Shown: positions 30,233 to 61,462 of the stretch, piece by piece
Layout of the letters: the number at the start of each line of letters is the position of its first letter
How positions within the stretch are numbered: the first letter of the stretch is position 1
IMG/VR virus record: IMGVR_UViG_3300028833_000012
DNA length: 64,000 nucleotides
Reading direction: 5' to 3' (one strand)
From: an uncultured virus (IMG/VR IMGVR_UViG_3300028833_000012)
Taxonomy: Duplodnaviria > Heunggongvirae > Uroviricota > Caudoviricetes
Position numbers and translations under genes: made by a program
Notes under the pieces: generated by a model
Seen by the model: only the letters and a program-made list of their open reading frames with translations
Told to the model about the DNA's origin: nothing
The model's database searches: none

Positions 30233-31672
30233 TTACCATTCATATCCGGCGATAGCCGTTTCCAGCTCGCCCTCGCCCTGTTCGGCAAGGCGGATGAAGT
30301 CAAACACCTTTTCGGACCATCCGGCGATGATGTTGGTCCGCTGGCCGTGGAACTGCTGGGTGCCGTATCCCATCAGGTCAATAGCGTGCACCCAGATGTT
30401 TCTGCCGGATTGCTTGCGGTATGCGTCGGCAAAGCCCTGCACCGTCCCGTTTGTGTACCAGCCGAGATCGCAATTGCACTCGTTGTCGGAGATCACAATG
30501 AGCCGGTCTGCTTTCACGCCAGCCTCGATCATCTTCTTAAAAGGCAGATACATGTTCGTGCCGCCACTGGCCCTTGCTCGGTGAGTCGCCGTTTCGAGGA
30601 TTGCCGTGTAATGGGACAGGCTGGCGCTGCGGATGTCCGTGTCGAACTCATAGAAGATGCTGTTTTCGCAAATCTTGTTTGCCAGCAGGCCGAGCATCAT
30701 GCCGATCTCACAGCAGCGAATCTCGGATTTTTCGCTGACGCGGGAACCCATAGAACCGGACGTGTCCACCGCAATAACGGTCGTGCCAGGAAGCCTGGGC
30801 ATGTTCTCAACGGAGGCCCGCGCAGCGTTTTCCAGCGCGTCATAGGCGCGGCTGCCGGCATTGTCGGGCAGGTTCTTGTAGGCGGAGAGGAAGCGGAAGG
30901 GAAGCTGCCGAGACCGGCGCACGGCCTCCGGGTCTTCGATCTTTGCCCAGACCTTTTCAATGTTTCGCGGCTGAGCGTTGATGATGTTGCGCAGGTTGCG
31001 CAGCAGCGCCATGTATCCCACCTTTCCGCTGTCGATCAGGTTCTCCCAGGTCTCTCGGTTATTGCCGTGAGCGGAAAGCTGTGTCTCCCAGGTGATGGGC
31101 GTTTCAAGCGTGCCTTCCAGCAGCCGCTTCCACATGGCGGACTGTTCTGCGTCCTTCGGCTTCGGGCGCGTCAGGCACAGCACGTCCCGCATTTTGACGG
31201 TCTTCCCTTCGCCCTTGTACTTCGCCAGGGTGTACTCGTCGAAGGCGGCGAAGGCGTCCTCCAGGCCCCTGCGGAGGGCGTTCGGGATCGGCTTGCCAAA
31301 GGTAGAGAGGTAGAAGGCCAGGATCTCGGTCACATCGTCACCGCGAAGCACTACGCCCCGAATCGTCTTCTTCACATAGGGCTTGCCATCAACCTCGTGC
31401 GCAAGGAATCCAACCAGCACATGGCTGACCGTGCGCATGTTGAAAACGCGGCGGGCGAACACGGCCAGCTTGGAAACAAATTCCGGGTCGGCCTTGATGA
31501 CGCGCTTGATGGTCTCGGTCATGTCCGCCGTGTTGTCGCCGTAAAACTTCTGCTCGTTGAAAAAGCTGGTCAACACCTGCGTCACGAGCTTCTGCCGGTC
31601 CGGCATGGCGTAGGCCGCGTGACCGCTGAGATTCGTGGTCTTGATGGTTTGCGTCTGGTTGAACTTTGCCAT
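30233..31672 (-). CDS. rsr: Ro60/Rsr TROVE-domain RNA-binding protein with vWA domain
   Basis: EQKFYGD, FDEYTLAKY, TWETQLS, GYMALLRNLRN, SRQLPFRF, vWA MIDAS VDTSGSM, GGTN, VISDNE; AAGGAGG RBS. Confidence 0.93.
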   Translation of the reverse strand: MAKFNQTQTIKTTNLSGHAAYAMPDRQKLVTQVLTSFFNEQKFYGDNTADMTETIKRVIKADPEFVSKLAVFARRVFNMRTVSHVLVGFLAHEVDGKPYVKKTIRGVVLRGDDVTEILAFYLSTFGKPIPNALRRGLEDAFAAFDEYTLAKYKGEGKTVKMRDVLCLTRPKPKDAEQSAMWKRLLEGTLETPITWETQLSAHGNNRETWENLIDSGKVGYMALLRNLRNIINAQPRNIEKVWAKIEDPEAVRRSRQLPFRFLSAYKNLPDNAGSRAYDALENAARASVENMPRLPGTTVIAVDTSGSMGSRVSEKSEIRCCEIGMMLGLLANKICENSIFYEFDTDIRSASLSHYTAILETATHRARASGGTNMYLPFKKMIEAGVKADRLIVISDNECNCDLGWYTNGTVQGFADAYRKQSGRNIWVHAIDLMGYGTQQFHGQRTNIIAGWSEKVFDFIRLAEQGEGELETAIAGYEW

Positions 31673-31700
31673 TGTGATACCTCCTTGTCTTTGAAATCGA

Positions 31701-31786
31701 AAAGGCAAACGCGACGAAGGGCACAGACGGTTAATTGTCCGATTTACAGTCGAAGGAACCGTCTGCTGCAGTACGCGCTTGCCTTT
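31701..31786 (-). ncRNA. short Y-RNA-like RNA topped by a tRNA-Tyr-like anticodon stem-loop
   Basis: Terminal stem AAAGGCAAGCGCG/CGCGUUUGCCUUU, same bulged element as neighbours (UACUGCA), stem GCAGACGGUU/AACCGUCUGU, apical UUCGA-CUGUAAA-UCGGA; G-U pairs fix the minus strand. Confidence 0.72.
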
Positions 31787-32071: not shown

Positions 32072-32075
32072 AGCG

Positions 32076-32148
32076 CTGTCCCAGGTGGAATCGAACCACC
32101 AACCATCCGCTTAACGGGCGGGCGCTCTACCGATTGAGCTATAGGACA
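32076..32148 (-). tRNA. tRNA-Asn(GTT), atypical C33, no encoded CCA
   Basis: Cloverleaf TGTCCTA-TA-GCTC..GAGC-G-CCCGC-CCGTTAA-GCGGA-TGGTT-GGTGG-TTCGATT-CCACC-TGGGACA-G. Confidence 0.85.
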
Positions 32149-32658: not shown

Positions 32659-33789
32659 CTACTCTGTCGGTTTTTTCATGGTGTCCACAGCTGCGAAAAC
32701 ATCATCTGCGTCCGGGTGGGCATAGCGGTCGAGCATCCTGGAAGTTGACCAGCGCATTGCGCGTTGGACGGTCTGCGGGGCAATGCCTTCCGTGATGGCA
32801 AGAGCGGTGGCTGTGGTGTGTCGGCAGCAGTACGGTTCAAGACGGCGGCACCCGGCTTTCTGGAGCGCGGCGTAGTACTGCTCATACCACAGCTTTTCGG
32901 AACGGGTGAAGACATAGCCGTCCGGGCGGGCGTTCCTGATAAGGTCTTCCACAACCGGCACGATGTCCACCGGAAGGAAGACGGGGGAGGCCTTGCGCAC
33001 ATTGGTCTTCATGCCGATACCAAGGATCTTGCGATTTTCTATGTCGATGTGCTCGACCTTCAGCGCCTGCATTTCACCCGGCATCATGCCGGTGTAGATC
33101 ATCAGGAGCGGGATGGCAGCGTCAGTGTCACCGTTCTCGTAGAGTTTCCAGAGCGCCTTCTGCTCCTTGTCTGTGAAGACTTCGCGCACCTTCTCTTCCA
33201 GCTTTGGCAGGACGATGAAGGACGGTATGTCCTTGGACGCCCAGCCGTCAGCGCCGACCAGCTTGAACAGATGCGACAGGACCACCTTGCAGTCGCGGGC
33301 GGTGTAATAGCTCGTGCTGGTTTTCTCAACAGCATCGCGCAGAAGCGTGACGCTGACCTTGTTAACCGGGATGTGGCCGATGAGCGGTTCCATCTTCTTC
33401 CATGCGCCGCGATATGCGACCTGCTTGCTGACGGACAGTTTCGGCAGTTCGTTCTTTTCAAAGGTTTTCCAGTAGGATGCCACGTCCGGAGCCTTCCTGT
33501 CGGCATTTGGCGTACCGGAGATCAGGGTTGGCAGATAGTTGATGGCGTCTCGTTTGCTCTTGAATCCGCCTTTTGTTTTCCAAACCGGCTGTAAGCCCGA
33601 CTTGTTCTTGTCGGTCTTCTTGTAGTGATCCACCACGCGGGCGGTCCAGGTGGAACCGCGCTGGTAGACGGAACCTGTGCCGTTTGGCCGCTTCGACCGC
33701 TTGCGCTTTGTGGCGGTCAGTTTCTTTCCGCAGTAGCAGCACAGGGCGGCATCGTCGGGGATGTCTCTGGCGCATTTGGGGCAGAGCAT
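32659..33789 (-). CDS. int: tyrosine integrase with N-terminal zinc ribbon
   Basis: CPKC..CCYCG, RPNGTGSVY arm-binding segment, YTGMMPGE, YCCRHT, RW...DRYAH; variant catalytic boxes. Confidence 0.9.
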   Translation of the reverse strand: MLCPKCARDIPDDAALCCYCGKKLTATKRKRSKRPNGTGSVYQRGSTWTARVVDHYKKTDKNKSGLQPVWKTKGGFKSKRDAINYLPTLISGTPNADRKAPDVASYWKTFEKNELPKLSVSKQVAYRGAWKKMEPLIGHIPVNKVSVTLLRDAVEKTSTSYYTARDCKVVLSHLFKLVGADGWASKDIPSFIVLPKLEEKVREVFTDKEQKALWKLYENGDTDAAIPLLMIYTGMMPGEMQALKVEHIDIENRKILGIGMKTNVRKASPVFLPVDIVPVVEDLIRNARPDGYVFTRSEKLWYEQYYAALQKAGCRRLEPYCCRHTTATALAITEGIAPQTVQRAMRWSTSRMLDRYAHPDADDVFAAVDTMKKPTE

Positions 33790-33790
33790 T

Positions 33791-34441
33791 TTATATCACC
33801 TTGCTTATAAAGAATGTCGCAAGTCCAATGATGCGGATGTTCTCGCAAGGGTCGATACCAATTGTCTTTGGCGGATACTTGCTGTTCTCCGCTATAAGTG
33901 TGACTGTGCCGTCATTGTTGTGATACACGCGCTTCAATGTGGCCTCGTCGTCGATCAGCACGGCGGCGATTTGCCCGTCCGTCACATCGTCCTGTTGGCG
34001 GATGCAGACAAGATCACCATCAAGGATACGCGCACCGATCATGGAGTCACCTTTGCATTCAAGAGCAAAGTCAGCGTTAATGTTTGCTGGTATAGAGGCG
34101 TAATCTTCAACATTCTCTTCCGCGAGTATCGGTTCACCACACGCAATTTCACCTATGACAGGTATTGTTTGCATGGCTGGCATCTTGAAAACATTAGTCA
34201 AAGCCGAGCCGGATTCGTTCACGGGCTCTGGCGACTTGTCATTTGACCATCCGATAAGATACTTGACATTTGTCCGTAGGGCATTTGCGATAGGCGCAAG
34301 TTTATTGGCATCAAGTTTTTCGATAGACCCGTTTTCCCATCTGAATATGGTGGCCCTGGAAACGCCAACCATTTCGCCCAATTCATCTGCACTTATCCCA
34401 AGTTCTTTTCTTCTCTCCCGAACTCTCTGAGCGATTGTCAT
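33791..34441 (-). CDS. LexA/CI-like repressor (XRE HTH plus S24 peptidase)
   Basis: N-terminal HTH, IACG cleavage site, KGDSM serine, ATLKRV lysine. Confidence 0.92.
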   Translation of the reverse strand: MTIAQRVRERRKELGISADELGEMVGVSRATIFRWENGSIEKLDANKLAPIANALRTNVKYLIGWSNDKSPEPVNESGSALTNVFKMPAMQTIPVIGEIACGEPILAEENVEDYASIPANINADFALECKGDSMIGARILDGDLVCIRQQDDVTDGQIAAVLIDDEATLKRVYHNNDGTVTLIAENSKYPPKTIGIDPCENIRIIGLATFFISKVI

Positions 34442-34467: not shown

Positions 34468-34557
34468 ATTCTATCACAACAGTGTCAAAACTGCAACAAC
34501 AAAATTGTCAAAAATGCAACTTTGGGTATTGACAAGTGAAACGATGCGTGTTATATT
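34468..34557. promoter_or_regulatory. divergent CI/Cro promoter-operator region
   Basis: Plus strand TTGACA(34529)-17-TATATT; minus strand TTGCAG-17-TAGAAT; repeated TGTCAAAA/TGCAAC motifs. Confidence 0.7.
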
Positions 34558-35647: not shown

Positions 35648-35850
35648 GCATGACGGAGGACAGCATCGCCATGAAGTTGTTCAGCGCGACGGCTGACAAC
35701 CAGTGGCTGGCGAGAGAGCTGAAGGACTGCTGCAACGAACTATGCCTGCGGTGCGGGGATTACCGGAATGAGCATCTCGGCGCTTGCGACAGTTGCCGAT
35801 GGAAGGAAGTGCGGCATGGAAACATTGGACGAGGTCAGGCGAAGCAATAA
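35644..35850 (+). CDS. Cys-rich small protein
   Basis: CCNELCLRCG...CDSCRW. Confidence 0.5.
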   Translation: MSMTEDSIAMKLFSATADNQWLARELKDCCNELCLRCGDYRNEHLGACDSCRWKEVRHGNIGRGQAKQ

Positions 35851-36058
35851 GCCGTTCCTGATCCCGGATGACATCGCGCCGATCCTGGGCTGCCATCCAC
35901 AGGCCATCCGGGAAGAAGCGCGTGACAGGGGGCTTCCGTTTCCGTTCATCCTGATCGGGAACAGGACAAAGATCCCCCGGTTACCCTTCATCGAATTCAT
36001 GACGAAGTTACCGGCAAATACAGGAGGCGCGGAAGATGACCATCAGGAGAGCATATAA
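35816..36058 (+). CDS. excisionase-like HTH protein
   Basis: LIPDDIAPILGCHPQAIR...IGNRTKIPR. Confidence 0.65.
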   Translation: METLDEVRRSNKPFLIPDDIAPILGCHPQAIREEARDRGLPFPFILIGNRTKIPRLPFIEFMTKLPANTGGAEDDHQESI

Positions 36059-37157: not shown

Positions 37158-37690
37158 TCGGCATGGCGGAACAGGAACAGTATGTCAAACCGCTCACCGG
37201 GAACGAGTACGCCGCGCTACAGACGCTCTTCGCCGTTGTGTCGGCGTGGCAGGAAGCCTGTGAGAACGGCGCACTGAAGCAGCGCATCCGGGAGTCCGGC
37301 GGCACCCTGTGGCGGGATGTCTGCCTGCTCCGGTCGCTCTCCGAAAAGACCATGCGGCAGATCCTCAAGAGCATTCCCGCGAAGAAACTGCAACACATCC
37401 AGGCGGAACTGAGCATGACGCACCTGTACATCAAGGTAGCGCCGCCCGGACTGCCCGGAATGCCGGACATGCAGGGCTACAGTTACACCCCGACCGCCGC
37501 GCTCAACACGATGCTACAGCACGTCTGCGAAACCGAGTGCGGCCTGTGCGACAAGACCGAAGCGGAGAGCCGGAAGTGCAAGTGGCGAAAGGCCATTGAA
37601 GAAGCGCTCCCGCATGAGGTCGGCAAGGACAAGGGCGGGAAGTGCAAATATTCGGATATTGTGCTTGGACTGGAAACAGTCGATGAATAA
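37154..37690 (+). CDS. hypothetical protein with C-terminal Cys cluster
   Basis: CETECGLC...C...CKY. Confidence 0.55.
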   Translation: MIGMAEQEQYVKPLTGNEYAALQTLFAVVSAWQEACENGALKQRIRESGGTLWRDVCLLRSLSEKTMRQILKSIPAKKLQHIQAELSMTHLYIKVAPPGLPGMPDMQGYSYTPTAALNTMLQHVCETECGLCDKTEAESRKCKWRKAIEEALPHEVGKDKGGKCKYSDIVLGLETVDE

Positions 37691-37745
37691 GGCTACACAT
37701 CCAAAGAATGAAGATGCAGATTGCATTTGATAAGGAGAGAAAACC

Positions 37746-38339
37746 ATGAAAGAAATGAAAGTGAAGATCACCCTGACCGAGGAAATGCTTGGGATGTCCC
37801 CTTCTGACAAGGATGTTTATTCAAACTTCATTGCCGGCAACGCACCCGACGCGCCCAGCATGGAGGAAGAGATTGCCGCCATCGGGACGGACGGCGTGGA
37901 GGAGAAAGGAACAACCGTGTTCCCGCGTGACACGAACGGCAACCCGATCATGTGGGACTATCAGATCCGTGGCTTCTTCAAGGATGCTTGCGGTATGCTC
38001 CGGAGGATCCCGAAGACGAAGTCCAGCGCCATGAAGGCGTACAAGAAGATCATCGACGGCCTGATCTTCGTGAAGGAAAGGATGATTCCGATCAACGTGA
38101 ACGGCGAGTGCGGAAACTGCCAGCGCCCGCTGCGGGCACAGACCGCACAGGGAGAACGTATTGCCCTGGCCGCAAGCGAGACCGTGCCGACCGGATCCAC
38201 CATCTGCTTCACTGTGCAGACCATGCTCGACGATGACATGGAGGCCGTGAAAGAGTGGCTGAATTACGGCACGTTCCGTGGCCTTGGCCAGTGGCGGAAC
38301 TCTGGCAAGGGCCGGTTCGCTTGGGAAGAAATCGGGTGA
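37746..38339 (+). CDS. stand-alone Cas7/RAMP-superfamily-like protein
   Basis: N-terminal strand VKITLTEEMLG, PIMWDYQIRGFFKDAC (cf. Csm3 PYIPGSSLKG), ETVPTGSTICFTV, C-terminal Gly-rich loop GLGQWRNSGKGRF; no other cas genes in window. Confidence 0.75.
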   Translation: MKEMKVKITLTEEMLGMSPSDKDVYSNFIAGNAPDAPSMEEEIAAIGTDGVEEKGTTVFPRDTNGNPIMWDYQIRGFFKDACGMLRRIPKTKSSAMKAYKKIIDGLIFVKERMIPINVNGECGNCQRPLRAQTAQGERIALAASETVPTGSTICFTVQTMLDDDMEAVKEWLNYGTFRGLGQWRNSGKGRFAWEEIG

Positions 38340-38348
38340 TGAAGCAGC

Positions 38349-38909
38349 ATGATTAAGAACGGCAGACCCTACACCAACGAAAATGGATGTGTAGATGGCT
38401 CTTTAATCACACACTGCGAGCCTCACGAGGTGCGTGAAGTTGGCGAATGGATTAAGAAGAACATACGGCCCGCCAGAACGATCTATTGTGTAACAAGTTA
38501 CGGATTGAAACATTCGGTGGAAGGCGCAACAAATATTTATCTAACCAACAACCAGTTTAAGGATGCTATGTTGCTTGCCGGATACAAGCCGGTCGATCCG
38601 GACGAACTAAATTGGCGCTATCGGATACAGTTTGTAGACGAATTCAACAACAATCCATTCTTGCGCTGGGCCAAGCGTTTCTCTCATGAAGATTCCCCTC
38701 GCGGCGACTTTGTCCGTGACGCGAGTTGCGCGAATTGCTTGGATATTGGCTTCCCGGTGTTTGCCGATTACTCGATCATCCTTAATTACCTTTACAGTAT
38801 CGGTGCGTGTCAGGAAGCGATTGATGCATTTGATGAATTGTGGTCAGAATATTCCGGAAACGAACAAAATGGTGGTTGTGTGAAGCGATACGGAGTGGCG
38901 GAGAACTGA
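38349..38909 (+). CDS. two-domain hypothetical protein with C-terminal YozE SAM-like domain
   Basis: SYGLKH...YLTNNQFKDAM; FLRW...DSPRGDFVRDA...FP...AFDELWSEY; more AT-rich than flanks. Confidence 0.6.
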   Translation: MIKNGRPYTNENGCVDGSLITHCEPHEVREVGEWIKKNIRPARTIYCVTSYGLKHSVEGATNIYLTNNQFKDAMLLAGYKPVDPDELNWRYRIQFVDEFNNNPFLRWAKRFSHEDSPRGDFVRDASCANCLDIGFPVFADYSIILNYLYSIGACQEAIDAFDELWSEYSGNEQNGGCVKRYGVAEN

Positions 38910-39430
38910 TTTGCGGAGAACTGAACAGACACGGACTTGCTTCGAATCGTGTGGCTAAGACCCGATAAGGAATAGATCTGACCCGCGGTGATGGGCAACG
39001 AAATGGAACTGCTCAGAGTTGCTTTGACCAGAGACGGAATCGCGTGGATGAGAACGGACTCGACATGGATGGGCACGGAATCGCGGTGATCTGATCTGAT
39101 AAGGAGTGGAATTGCGATGAACGGAAACGGATTGGATCAGAATAGTATAGCAGATAACTGAACCGAGATGAAATGGAGGCGCAGTGATTGGCTCCGACTT
39201 GAAACGGAGTTGCTCTGAACGGATAAGACCGGAAACGGAAAGGCACGGTTAAGAGGAGAGAAGCAGCGGATTGGCCGCGCACCGACACGACGGGAGATGG
39301 AGTGGAAAGGCAAGGACCCGAGCCGAGCCGAGTAGCAATGGAAGCGAATCGAACAGCGCCGATAAGAAACGGAAAAGATCCGAAGAGCCTGGAACAGAAA
39401 AGGACCTGCTCTGCACAGAAAAGCAGCAAA
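38880..39430 (+). repeat. 5-nt-periodic non-coding array (NNG[A/C]N pentamers punctuated by RNGGAN hexamers); candidate guide-RNA array
   Basis: Manual parse: 17 hexamers at 38890, 38931, 38967, 39003, 39034, 39065, 39075, 39106, 39127, 39173, 39204, 39235, 39266, 39302, 39338, 39369, 39400; 85 of 86 pentamers have G at position 3. Confidence 0.9.
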
Positions 39431-39467
39431 ACGCACGCCACCATCACGCAAAAAGGAGATCACCAAC

Positions 39468-39689
39468 ATGACCGTCACACAAGACACCATCTTCGACGTA
39501 GGCCAGTATCTCTACCATCGCCGCAAGACCGTCGGCAAAACCATGCTCGACATCGAGCACACCCACGGCGTGTCGCACTCGACCGTGGACGACATCGAGA
39601 GCGGCAAGACCAAGCCGCTGCTGTACACGCTGGTGCTGATCTGCGAGGCGCTGGGACTGGAAGTCGTGATCCGGGAGAAACAGCGGTGA
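39468..39689 (+). CDS. XRE-family HTH protein
   Basis: GVSHSTVDDIESGKTKPLLYTLVLICEALG. Confidence 0.8.
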   Translation: MTVTQDTIFDVGQYLYHRRKTVGKTMLDIEHTHGVSHSTVDDIESGKTKPLLYTLVLICEALGLEVVIREKQR

Positions 39690-39874
39690 AGCCGCCGTGC
39701 AAGGACTGCCCGGAGCGGAACGAACTGTGTCATGCGACCTGCGAGAAGTACAAGGCATACAGGGCGGAGCGCGAGGCGCTCTACGAAGATCGCCACCAGC
39801 GCTGGGAACGCAGACACGAAGTCTCTGAACAGATGCTGAAGCGGGCACAGGCCAAAAAGCGGAAGAAGCAATGA
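39686..39874 (+). CDS. small Cys-rich protein
   Basis: PCKDCPER..CHATCEKY. Confidence 0.55.
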   Translation: MKPPCKDCPERNELCHATCEKYKAYRAEREALYEDRHQRWERRHEVSEQMLKRAQAKKRKKQ

Positions 39875-40442
39875 AAGCGAGGCGATGCGAATGAAGGTGG
39901 TCATCATCTTCAACAACGGCGGACACATCACGTTCGACCCGGACAAGGTGCTGGTCGTCCCGGTCGTCGAGTCGGTGCGCGACTTCCGGCATGAACTGCG
40001 CGACGGCAAGCTGGTTGTTGTCCGCGACCAAATCACAGCCATCCAACCGCTGCGGGAAGAGGAGGCATGGGACGCATGATCTGGCTGACCGCAATCCTCC
40101 TGATCGTCGCCAATGCGAACGGCGTGACCATCCCGGTCCCGGCATGGATCGTCTGGGGCGTGTGGGCGATTGTCGCAACAGCAGCAGTCTTCCTGCGTGT
40201 GGAGGACGAAGAAGACTAACCACCCCGCCCAGCCTTCAAGGCAAGCGGAACATTTCACCTCACCCGTGCCGCCCTGTGTTCTGCGCGCACCAGGGAGCGC
40301 GGAGGGCATTGAAGGGCGACTGTGGGCGGGGACATGGTTCAGCGGTCAGCCATAAACCGCTCCGGGCGGGGAGCCTGTGAAACGGCGAATGCCGCGTAGC
40401 TCGTGAGGATCCGCCCGGTTACAAATAGCGAAATGTTAGGAG

Positions 40443-60644: not shown

Positions 60645-61462
60645 CCAGCAAGCCCGGTAGCCATAAGAAAGCAACCTGTACCCGACGAGACGTATATATA
60701 AGCTATAGCGTACAATATATATAACAAAATGTACGTTATAAATATATATATATGTCTATAACGTGTCAGGTTGCTTTTGCCTATTGACTGGCTTCTGGGC
60801 GTGCAGTCTGTACCGCAACTCTGGCCGTCCGGGTGGTGTGATGGCGGCTTGTCTTCCTCCGGGCAGCGTCCGTGCTGGGCGGCGTTGACCATCAGAAGGT
60901 GCGTTTGGCGGCTGGCCCGGTTTGGGCGGCGGCGTGACTGTGCAGCGGGAACGAGACCGGCAGCACTCGCGCCCTTGGATGGCAAAGCGACGGCGGTTCG
61001 GACCGTGACGGTTGGACAGGACCGGCGGCGGAATCATCCACCCCTGATTGCAAAACGCAGCAGAAGCGGACGATGCGCCCAGGAATCGCCGCTATGCTGT
61101 CCAGAATGCGCCAGGATCGTCTCGTGGCGTTTGGCGTGGGAAATATCCATCAGAAACAGGAAGCGCTCAGAAGGGCGTTTTTGTGGCTCTATGAGCGTGT
61201 CGCTTATAACATGGTTGATAACGCGGTTTATAGCCGGGTTGATAACGTCAAAACAGAATAGCGCAATCAGAATTGATTTTAGGGCGGTCAGAAGGGGCTT
61301 GCGAGCGTCTCGCTGTGTTTAGATTGGTTTGTGTCCATCTGGATAGTGAGCGCGTCAGAAGGGCGTTATTGACAGAATGCGGGCGTGGTGCGTCAGAACG
61401 GGCGGATTGTGCGCACGAAAAAAGCCCGCACGGTGGCGGGCGGTGTGGGCGATTGGCGGTGG

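Follow-up and report, generated by a model that had tools for sequence, protein, structure and literature searches.

A probable VIPR system with a single-G pentamer array in the early operon of a temperate gut-Clostridia phage

The uncultured virus IMGVR_UViG_3300028833_000012 (IMG/VR; Caudoviricetes) was analysed as one stretch of 64,000 nucleotides (nt), called the window below. It belongs to a temperate phage whose hosts are Clostridia of the gut. The early rightward operon carries a gene for a 197-amino-acid (aa) Cas7-like protein, here termed vipr, and downstream of it an array with a step of 5 nt. This locus is very likely a VIPR (Viral Interference Programmable Repeat) system of an already known kind, and the fold of the protein, its homology to Vipr, the anatomy of the array and the linkage of array and gene across relatives support this assignment. 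VIPR, an RNA-guided silencer of DNA related to CRISPR, was first described in 2026 (10.64898/2026.04.26.720920) and is also treated in three further reports (10.64898/2026.04.26.720927, 10.64898/2026.10.15.759431, 10.64898/2026.10.21.760802). The elements at the locus, including one open reading frame (ORF) between gene and array, are as follows.

37746..38339, plus strand: vipr gene, 197 aa, encoding a minimal RAMP (Cas7-like) protein
38349..38909, plus strand: ORF of 186 aa, with a C-terminal YozE_SAM_like domain (PF06855, E 3.6e-8) and an N-terminal part matching phrog_9576 (PHROG hits)
38882..39423, plus strand: vrRNA array, 542 nt, delimited by a parse of its G chain

No Pfam or PHROG family was recognised in the product of 37746-38339. 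An AlphaFold2 model based on a 57-sequence alignment (pLDDT 90.2, pTM 0.84) was composed of one RRM core, a helical insertion at about residues 22-45, a thumb beta-hairpin at 123-147 and a glycine-rich loop (G-loop), GLGQWRNSGKGRF, at 179-191. Such a build is that of a Vipr, a minimal RAMP that combines a single RRM with a thumb and a glycine-rich loop and lacks a second RRM. The closest structural matches of the model were the RNA-targeting backbone subunits Csm3, Cmr4 and type VII Cas7. The 197-aa protein is thus predicted to have a Cas7-like fold, in agreement with an earlier note, made from the letters of the window, that had proposed a lone Cas7/RAMP-like gene. The same note had seen neither cas genes nor a CRISPR array, and this holds as well: Pfam detected no cas families among the 73 window ORFs scanned, and TRF detected no CRISPR-like tandem array in the window. 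No Cas10, Cas5, Cas6 or Cas14 partner was present in the window, and none was conserved beside the gene in 167 loci. As in VIPR systems, the carrier is viral or proviral and is without a CRISPR array or other cas genes.

The protein belongs to a very large family. Among the scored candidates, 7963/8000 matched it at E<=1e-3, and the family has 1720 representative protein clusters at 50% identity. Relatives are encoded by at least 577 IMG/VR stretches, and 119 hits to the family were obtained among species-representative genomes. We compared the family with the Vipr of Escherichia phage SUSP1, whose 195-aa ORF, flanked by tailed YNNGG arrays, corresponds to PDB 36pp ('SUSP1 Vipr protein'). With hhalign, the family profile aligned to SUSP1 Vipr end to end over residues 1-192 (E 9.9e-6, probability 82%) and to a 30-sequence profile of type II Vipr over 184 columns (E 4e-5, probability 70%). 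Judged from these profile alignments, the homology to a characterised Vipr is distant but full-length.

The array was assessed both for periodicity and by an explicit parse. Base autocorrelation of 38880-39430 peaked at lags of 5 (0.44), 10 (0.41), 31 (0.49) and 36 (0.48), with values of about 0.2-0.25 at other lags. For the parse, dynamic programming was used to find a chain of G residues at 5-nt, occasionally 6-nt, spacing. Positions 38882-39423 resolved into 87 pentamers NNNGM (M being A or C), with the base after the G being A in 57, C in 27 and T in 3 and with the three remaining positions all variable; the presence of G in 87/87 pentamers follows from the construction of the chain, and one pentamer (CAGAT) stands in the chain without that G. 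The chain scored 79, compared with a mean of 6.3 (standard deviation 1.5, maximum 12) for 500 shuffles of the same 551 nt and a maximum of 13.5 when the whole window was shuffled 5 times. The period-5 G[A/C] tract described in the earlier note is therefore real, and the locus has an adjacent, same-strand 5-nt repeat array with fixed and hypervariable positions.

The 5-nt phase is interrupted by 16 six-base steps resembling N-A-N-G-G-A, with GGA in 16/16 and A at position 2 in 15/16. These GG junctions divide the chain into abutting units of the form G(MNNNG)n, joined as ...G/G..., and the unit spacings are all 5n+1. The hexamers that punctuate the tract had been counted as 17; their presence and their 5n+1 spacing stood, but the number is 16, as the first list had taken in internal ACGGA pentamers. 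The 15 complete units measure 41, 36, 36, 31, 31, 36, 26, 46, 31, 31, 31, 31, 41, 31 and 31 nt, and the parse placed them and the short flanking pieces as follows.

38893-38933, 38934-38969, 38970-39005, 39006-39036 and 39037-39067, plus strand: array units 1-5
39068-39103, 39104-39129, 39130-39175, 39176-39206 and 39207-39237, plus strand: array units 6-10
39238-39268, 39269-39299, 39300-39340, 39341-39371 and 39372-39402, plus strand: array units 11-15
38882-38892 (5') and 39403-39423 (3'), plus strand: end pieces flanking the complete units

No Rfam family or hammerhead was matched in the array. A protein-coding reading of the array was rejected because a 5-nt phase misfits codons; the ORFs listed are out-of-frame runs overlapping vipr or the arrays. 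Another G chain, at 60835-61030, was weak; its score of 12.5 was at shuffle level, and it was also rejected.

The roughly 540 bp between vipr and the array had been taken for a non-coding gap. This interval is actually occupied by the ORF at 38349-38909, the final 28 nt of which overlap the start of the array. By tblastn, the YozE_SAM_like ORF was present in 0/166 related loci, and in most relatives the array directly abuts vipr; one relative (L001) has a different, HNH-like ORF between gene and array. The ORF looks inserted because none of the related loci has it and L001 has another ORF in its place, and by this comparison it is probably a passenger gene outside the system.

Linkage of array and gene was examined across relatives, with an adjacent array counted when a same-strand G chain scored at least 15. 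A period-5 G array on the gene's strand was found beside the gene in 162/166 related loci, with variable bases that differed, comprising 85/86 loci from IMG/VR and 77/80 loci from species-representative genomes. The prediction of adjacent arrays in homologs, with the same scaffold and other variable bases, was thus borne out. Arrays follow the gene directly (3-54 nt past the stop), precede it directly, with their end about 30-50 nt ahead of the start, or flank it. The four misses are a 5.2-kb contig (L033) and three genome contigs of 2.2-3.2 kb; in these three the gene is located at a contig end or close to it. No comparable C chains, which would place the G phase on the complement of the gene strand, were found in the 166 loci. 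Most genome hits are to metagenome-assembled genomes assigned to Oscillospiraceae, Lachnospiraceae, Faecalibacterium, Ruminococcus or other Clostridia, and some are to Coriobacteriia; binning errors may account for the labels of a few. Relatives are also encoded in four phage records of GenBank that derive from human faecal samples.

Several of these loci are near-duplicates, and the IMG/VR set amounts to 80 distinct arrays. Pooled, these gave 4661 pentamer steps of NNNG followed by C (0.55) or A (0.30). The free positions are A-rich yet variable, and they differ between phages; the base before the G is A in 0.36, T in 0.24, G in 0.22 and C in 0.18. The pool also held 885 six-base steps, whose junctions follow the consensus G-C / A-A-N-G / G-M-A at frequencies of 0.77 (C), 0.66 (A), 0.81 (A), 0.88 (G), 1.0 (G), 0.90 (A/C) and 0.67 (A). 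Steps of 5 or 6 nt accounted for 5546/5876 of those between chain Gs. Among 1063 distinct units the sizes were 26 nt (297), 31 nt (304), 36 nt (196) and 41 nt (72), besides rarer ones. In 106 near-identical unit pairs, which are not independent of one another, the G never differed, and changes were seen in 5.6% at M and N1, 9.4% at N2 and 11.0% at N3, where N1, N2 and N3 are the three bases that follow M.

Additional period-5 G arrays were noticed 2-6 kb from vipr in four related loci (L122, L151, L115 and L113), for example at 13389-14063 in L151 (score 80) and at four additional places in L122. It is possible that these are solo vrRNA arrays such as those reported for SUSP1-family phages.

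The residues that contact RNA in SUSP1 Vipr were then compared with the RNA motif of the array. In the SUSP1 structure, recognition of G1 of the GGY motif falls to H17 and D177, R138 holds G2, for which W178 is the stacking partner, and the Y3 pocket consists of E71, M72, R179 and neighbouring residues (10.64898/2026.04.26.720927). According to a supplement legend, a change of GGY to GGA abolished function in SUSP1 (10.64898/2026.04.26.720920). In the hhalign alignment the G-loop GLGQWRNSGKGRF aligned with SUSP1 GVGDWRPRFGRF, with W and R kept: W183 and R184 match SUSP1 W178 and R179 and are invariant or nearly so in the family. The G1 readers H17 and D177 are replaced here by M17 (T in the family consensus) and Q182, and E71 and M72 of the Y3 pocket by F77 and F78. 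As aligned, the changed pockets fit an RNA motif in which the first G is missing and A/C stands in for C/U. The array RNA keeps one G, no longer fixes a G before it and shows A/C in place of C/U, and we therefore mapped the pentamer N3-G-M-N1-N2 on G1-G2-Y3-N4-N5, a provisional correspondence drawn from one alignment and not from a structure.

The locus lies in the early region of the phage, beside the following features.

32659-33789, minus strand: integrase
33791-34441, minus strand: cI-like repressor with HTH and S24 domains
34529-34557, plus strand: candidate early promoter, TTGACA-17-TATATT with TG, found by consensus scan (11/12 matches) and facing away from the cI-like gene
39468-39689, after the array: XRE-type HTH gene, 73 aa

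No terminator-like site was found on the plus strand between the candidate promoter and the array, and it is possible that this promoter drives a transcript through vipr and the array. Two metatranscriptome contigs span the array, one covering 38747-39485 with 0 differences and the other 38881-40113 with 1 difference; this second contig links array and HTH gene. These contigs come from two runs on one sample of one study. They fit read-through transcription, with carry-over of DNA as another possible source. In one RNA run depth was absent to the left of about 34534, beside the predicted promoter; this is a coverage gap and was not used as evidence. In one DNA run, which may be the source of the window, no Logan contig was found over vipr and the array (37204-39606), with both flanks at a depth of about 30; a break in the assembly or filtering of the repeat may be the cause.

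In the published mechanism, Vipr polymerises on RNA with one protomer to each pentamer, covering the fixed bases and displaying the free ones; the filament binds double-stranded DNA (dsDNA) in a gapped register, in which NN pairs and one target base is skipped, and transcription is blocked (10.64898/2026.04.26.720920, 10.64898/2026.04.26.720927). By analogy we infer RNA binding, unit processing, a pairing rule, DNA silencing and targets for the present locus. Rightward transcription would run through vipr and the array, and Vipr would assemble along the RNA as a polymer with a protomer for every pentamer. A protomer would hold the invariant G, the equivalent of SUSP1 G2, stacked on the G-loop tryptophan W183, with the following A/C lodged in the changed pocket. 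The variable bases would be exposed for gapped pairing with DNA, most likely as N1N2 with one target base skipped, and the filament on dsDNA would repress transcription in a rival element, be it a phage, a prophage or a satellite. The GG junctions (pooled consensus GC-AAN-G/G-M-A) would phase the array into tail-less units of 4-9 pentamers and, as processing sites or as start and stop marks for the filament, would set the unit ends.

Comparison with the best-described relative, the type II system of SUSP1 with its Vipr, vap1 and four vrRNAs (10.64898/2026.04.26.720920, 10.64898/2026.04.26.720927), showed several shared features. The proteins are of similar length (195 and 197 aa), and both are single-RRM RAMPs with a thumb, a G-loop and the W-R pair. 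In both systems the RNA has a 5-nt step with a fixed part containing G and variable bases, the array lies beside the gene and on its strand, and the carrier is a phage without other cas genes or a CRISPR array.

Several observations weigh against counting the locus as VIPR, and some of them are also differences from the SUSP1 system. The link to type II Vipr is distant (the hhalign probabilities of 70-82% given above, with similarity at profile level only), and a plain profile search of PDB sequences with hmmsearch did not list 36pp at E<=10. The canonical GGY/NN is absent: the fixed part is G-G-[C/U] in SUSP1 and N-G-[A/C] here, that is, one fixed G with a free base before it and A/C after it. 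This absence does not exclude membership, because the defining paper allows 'a related consensus'. Units hold 9-16 pentamers in SUSP1 and 4-9 here, and the conserved 3' tail or pseudoknot seen there is absent here, where units are tail-less and abut directly at GG. The carriers here have gut Clostridia as hosts. The vap gene, which the VIPR paper describes as 'typically' present and does not make strictly defining (10.64898/2026.04.26.720920), is absent, and no accessory neighbour is conserved; the commonest neighbour family, a 71-aa XRE HTH protein, occurs in just 42/167 loci. The RNA contigs come from a single study and show neither ends nor strand, and may stem from carried-over DNA. Read as NN only, 5-8 pentamers specify 10-16 bases, which is little for a specific guide, and a search for targets, described below, gave no excess over controls.

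With regard to neighbours, those of the window were found in 0-17/166 loci, and its XRE-type HTH gene at 39468-39689 in 0/166. A 96-aa Xis/HTH-like ORF at 35768-36058 on the plus strand lies 1.7 kb upstream of vipr in the window; in 17/166 loci a relative of it immediately precedes vipr (median -217 nt). This ORF might encode a DNA-binding partner in loose association with the system, or be just a common early gene.

Variation of the repeat has precedent among the published systems. Seven VIPR types are stated, and alternative repeats (NNNGG, YNNNG, NNNNG) and 'staggered arrays' with vrRNAs offset by 1 nt are mentioned (10.64898/2026.04.26.720920); a further report gives 21 clusters with non-canonical 5-mers, for example TGH/NN and WGT/NN (10.64898/2026.10.21.760802). 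Compared by text and legends, these variants resemble the present array in that each pentamer has a single fixed G and the register shifts by 1 nt between units, and NG[A/C]/NN is close to TGH/NN. They differ in that the base before the G is not T-biased here and in that the junction consists of two separate Gs, not a shared one. The suggestion that the locus is a VIPR variant with a different fixed code and punctuation, which the earlier note had made pending a literature check, is thus supported: the VIPR papers exist, and the fold, the profile homology and the linked arrays agree with it. CRISPR-Cas systems of type III or VII, which combine Cas7 with a repeat-spacer array and partner cas genes, are a poorer match. 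The step of Csm3, Cmr4 and type VII Cas7 is 6 nt, whereas it is 5 nt here; the window has neither the repeat-spacer array nor the partner genes, and the guide bases are interrupted in every unit.

Gapped-pattern searches for targets, using the variable bases of each unit as the earlier note had suggested, were performed in 12 registers (N1N2, N2N3 and N1N2N3, each with 0-3 skipped target bases). Guide sets of 386 units, 1067 units and 330 units of at least 7 pentamers were compared with related phage loci in which the arrays had been masked, first 1.35 Mb and later 2.3 Mb of them, and reversed or pentamer-shuffled guides served as controls. No register rose above the controls with up to 1067 units in the 2.3 Mb. 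For N1N2 with one base skipped, units of at least 7 pentamers gave 3 perfect hits, compared with 6, 5 and 5 in controls, and there was no clear excess of several units of one array on one locus. N1N2N3 with one base skipped gave 11 hits versus 2 and 2, but the five printed on a re-run were all A-rich low-complexity strings, and this candidate was rejected. A test of codon register, with N1N2 set against codon positions 1-2, was weak (r 0.35) and was not used. The power of the search was low because the database is small and an NN reading specifies only 10-16 bases per unit.

With so little information per unit, a three-base reading is conceivable, as is joint action of several units. We weighed a different pairing rule for the same parts, in which each protomer presents three bases (N1N2N3) or neighbouring units are combined, amounting to a second noncontiguous code. 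Across the 4661 pooled pentamers, each of the three positions that separate the A/C from the next G varies, and in the near-identical unit pairs these positions change (N1 5.6%, N2 9.4%, N3 11.0%) while the G never does, and the residues that read G1 in SUSP1 are replaced here. As N3 may sit unread in the former G1 pocket, and as N1N2N3 at skips of 0-3 gave 0-11 perfect hits compared with 0-9 in controls, we consider this rule unlikely. In its fuller form, the proposal is that the gut-Clostridia clade uses a second noncontiguous code with one G and a loose A/C fixed, three free bases and GG-delimited, tail-less mini-guides of 4-9 protomers, with recognition by three bases per protomer or by several units on one target. 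We hold this fuller form rather unlikely.

The same parts might also serve another chemistry, the filament of Vipr and RNA in this clade binding or cleaving RNA and not silencing dsDNA. The best structural matches (Csm3, Cmr4 and type VII Cas7) target RNA, the clade is far from the only characterised Vipr, that of type II, and the search for DNA targets in the 2.3 Mb of related phage loci found none. Set against this, characterised VIPR systems all bind dsDNA in the published accounts (10.64898/2026.04.26.720920, 10.64898/2026.04.26.720927), the published gapped DNA code accommodates units of 26-41 nt with 2-3 free bases in each pentamer no less well, and no nuclease partner is conserved beside the gene. 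RNA targeting is very unlikely on this balance. Least probable is that the array is no guide RNA at all but a DNA element (binding sites, an origin or a packaging signal) or a fast-evolving satellite hitch-hiking beside a domesticated RAMP gene: the array RNA in the window has no structure beyond shuffles (z 0.09) and no target was found, yet lack of structure is expected of a protein-coated guide, the G phase keeps strictly to the gene's strand with no comparable C chains in the 166 loci, scaffold bases are kept while others are free, and the anatomy is that of vrRNAs experimentally shown to be guides.

A VIPR system thus remains the favoured assignment, and the remainder of the window is that of a temperate phage. 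Its genes include terminase, portal, capsid/major head, a protein of tape-measure size, integrase, the cI-like repressor and RecT, as well as a PD-(D/E)XK exonuclease beside RecT, a helicase, a methylase and a primase. The stretch was found in sequencing runs labelled sheep gut. At the very start of the window, positions 1-127 form a perfect 28-nt tandem repeat of 4.5 copies (100% matches by TRF), which may be a genome-end, attachment or packaging-related repeat, or an assembly edge. Between the tail/lysis genes and the integrase, near a tRNA-Asn gene (32075-32148, minus strand), lies a gene for a Ro60-like protein (30233-31708, minus strand) with a TROVE domain (E 6.6e-36), a Ro60 vWA domain and a match to phrog_850, 'RNA-binding protein'. 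Ro60 proteins usually partner with a small Y RNA; none was matched in Rfam at gathering score.

Experiments on VIPR have so far been confined to type II, in phages of Enterobacteria and Pseudomonas, and our literature search found no paper characterising the gut-Clostridia clade experimentally. The present locus is part of a very large, uncharacterised branch whose carriers are temperate phages of Clostridia and Coriobacteriia in the gut. The kind of system is not new; what gives the find its value is the size of the clade, together with the questions it raises on code and unit boundaries. The relaxed repeat, the altered G1 and Y3 pockets and the short, tail-less units provide a natural test of how the pockets set the motif and how guide ends are defined. 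A second code, if true, would mean a pairing geometry and a definition of guide ends different from those of the SUSP1 type. Readable targets, if obtained, would chart the conflicts of phage against phage in gut communities.

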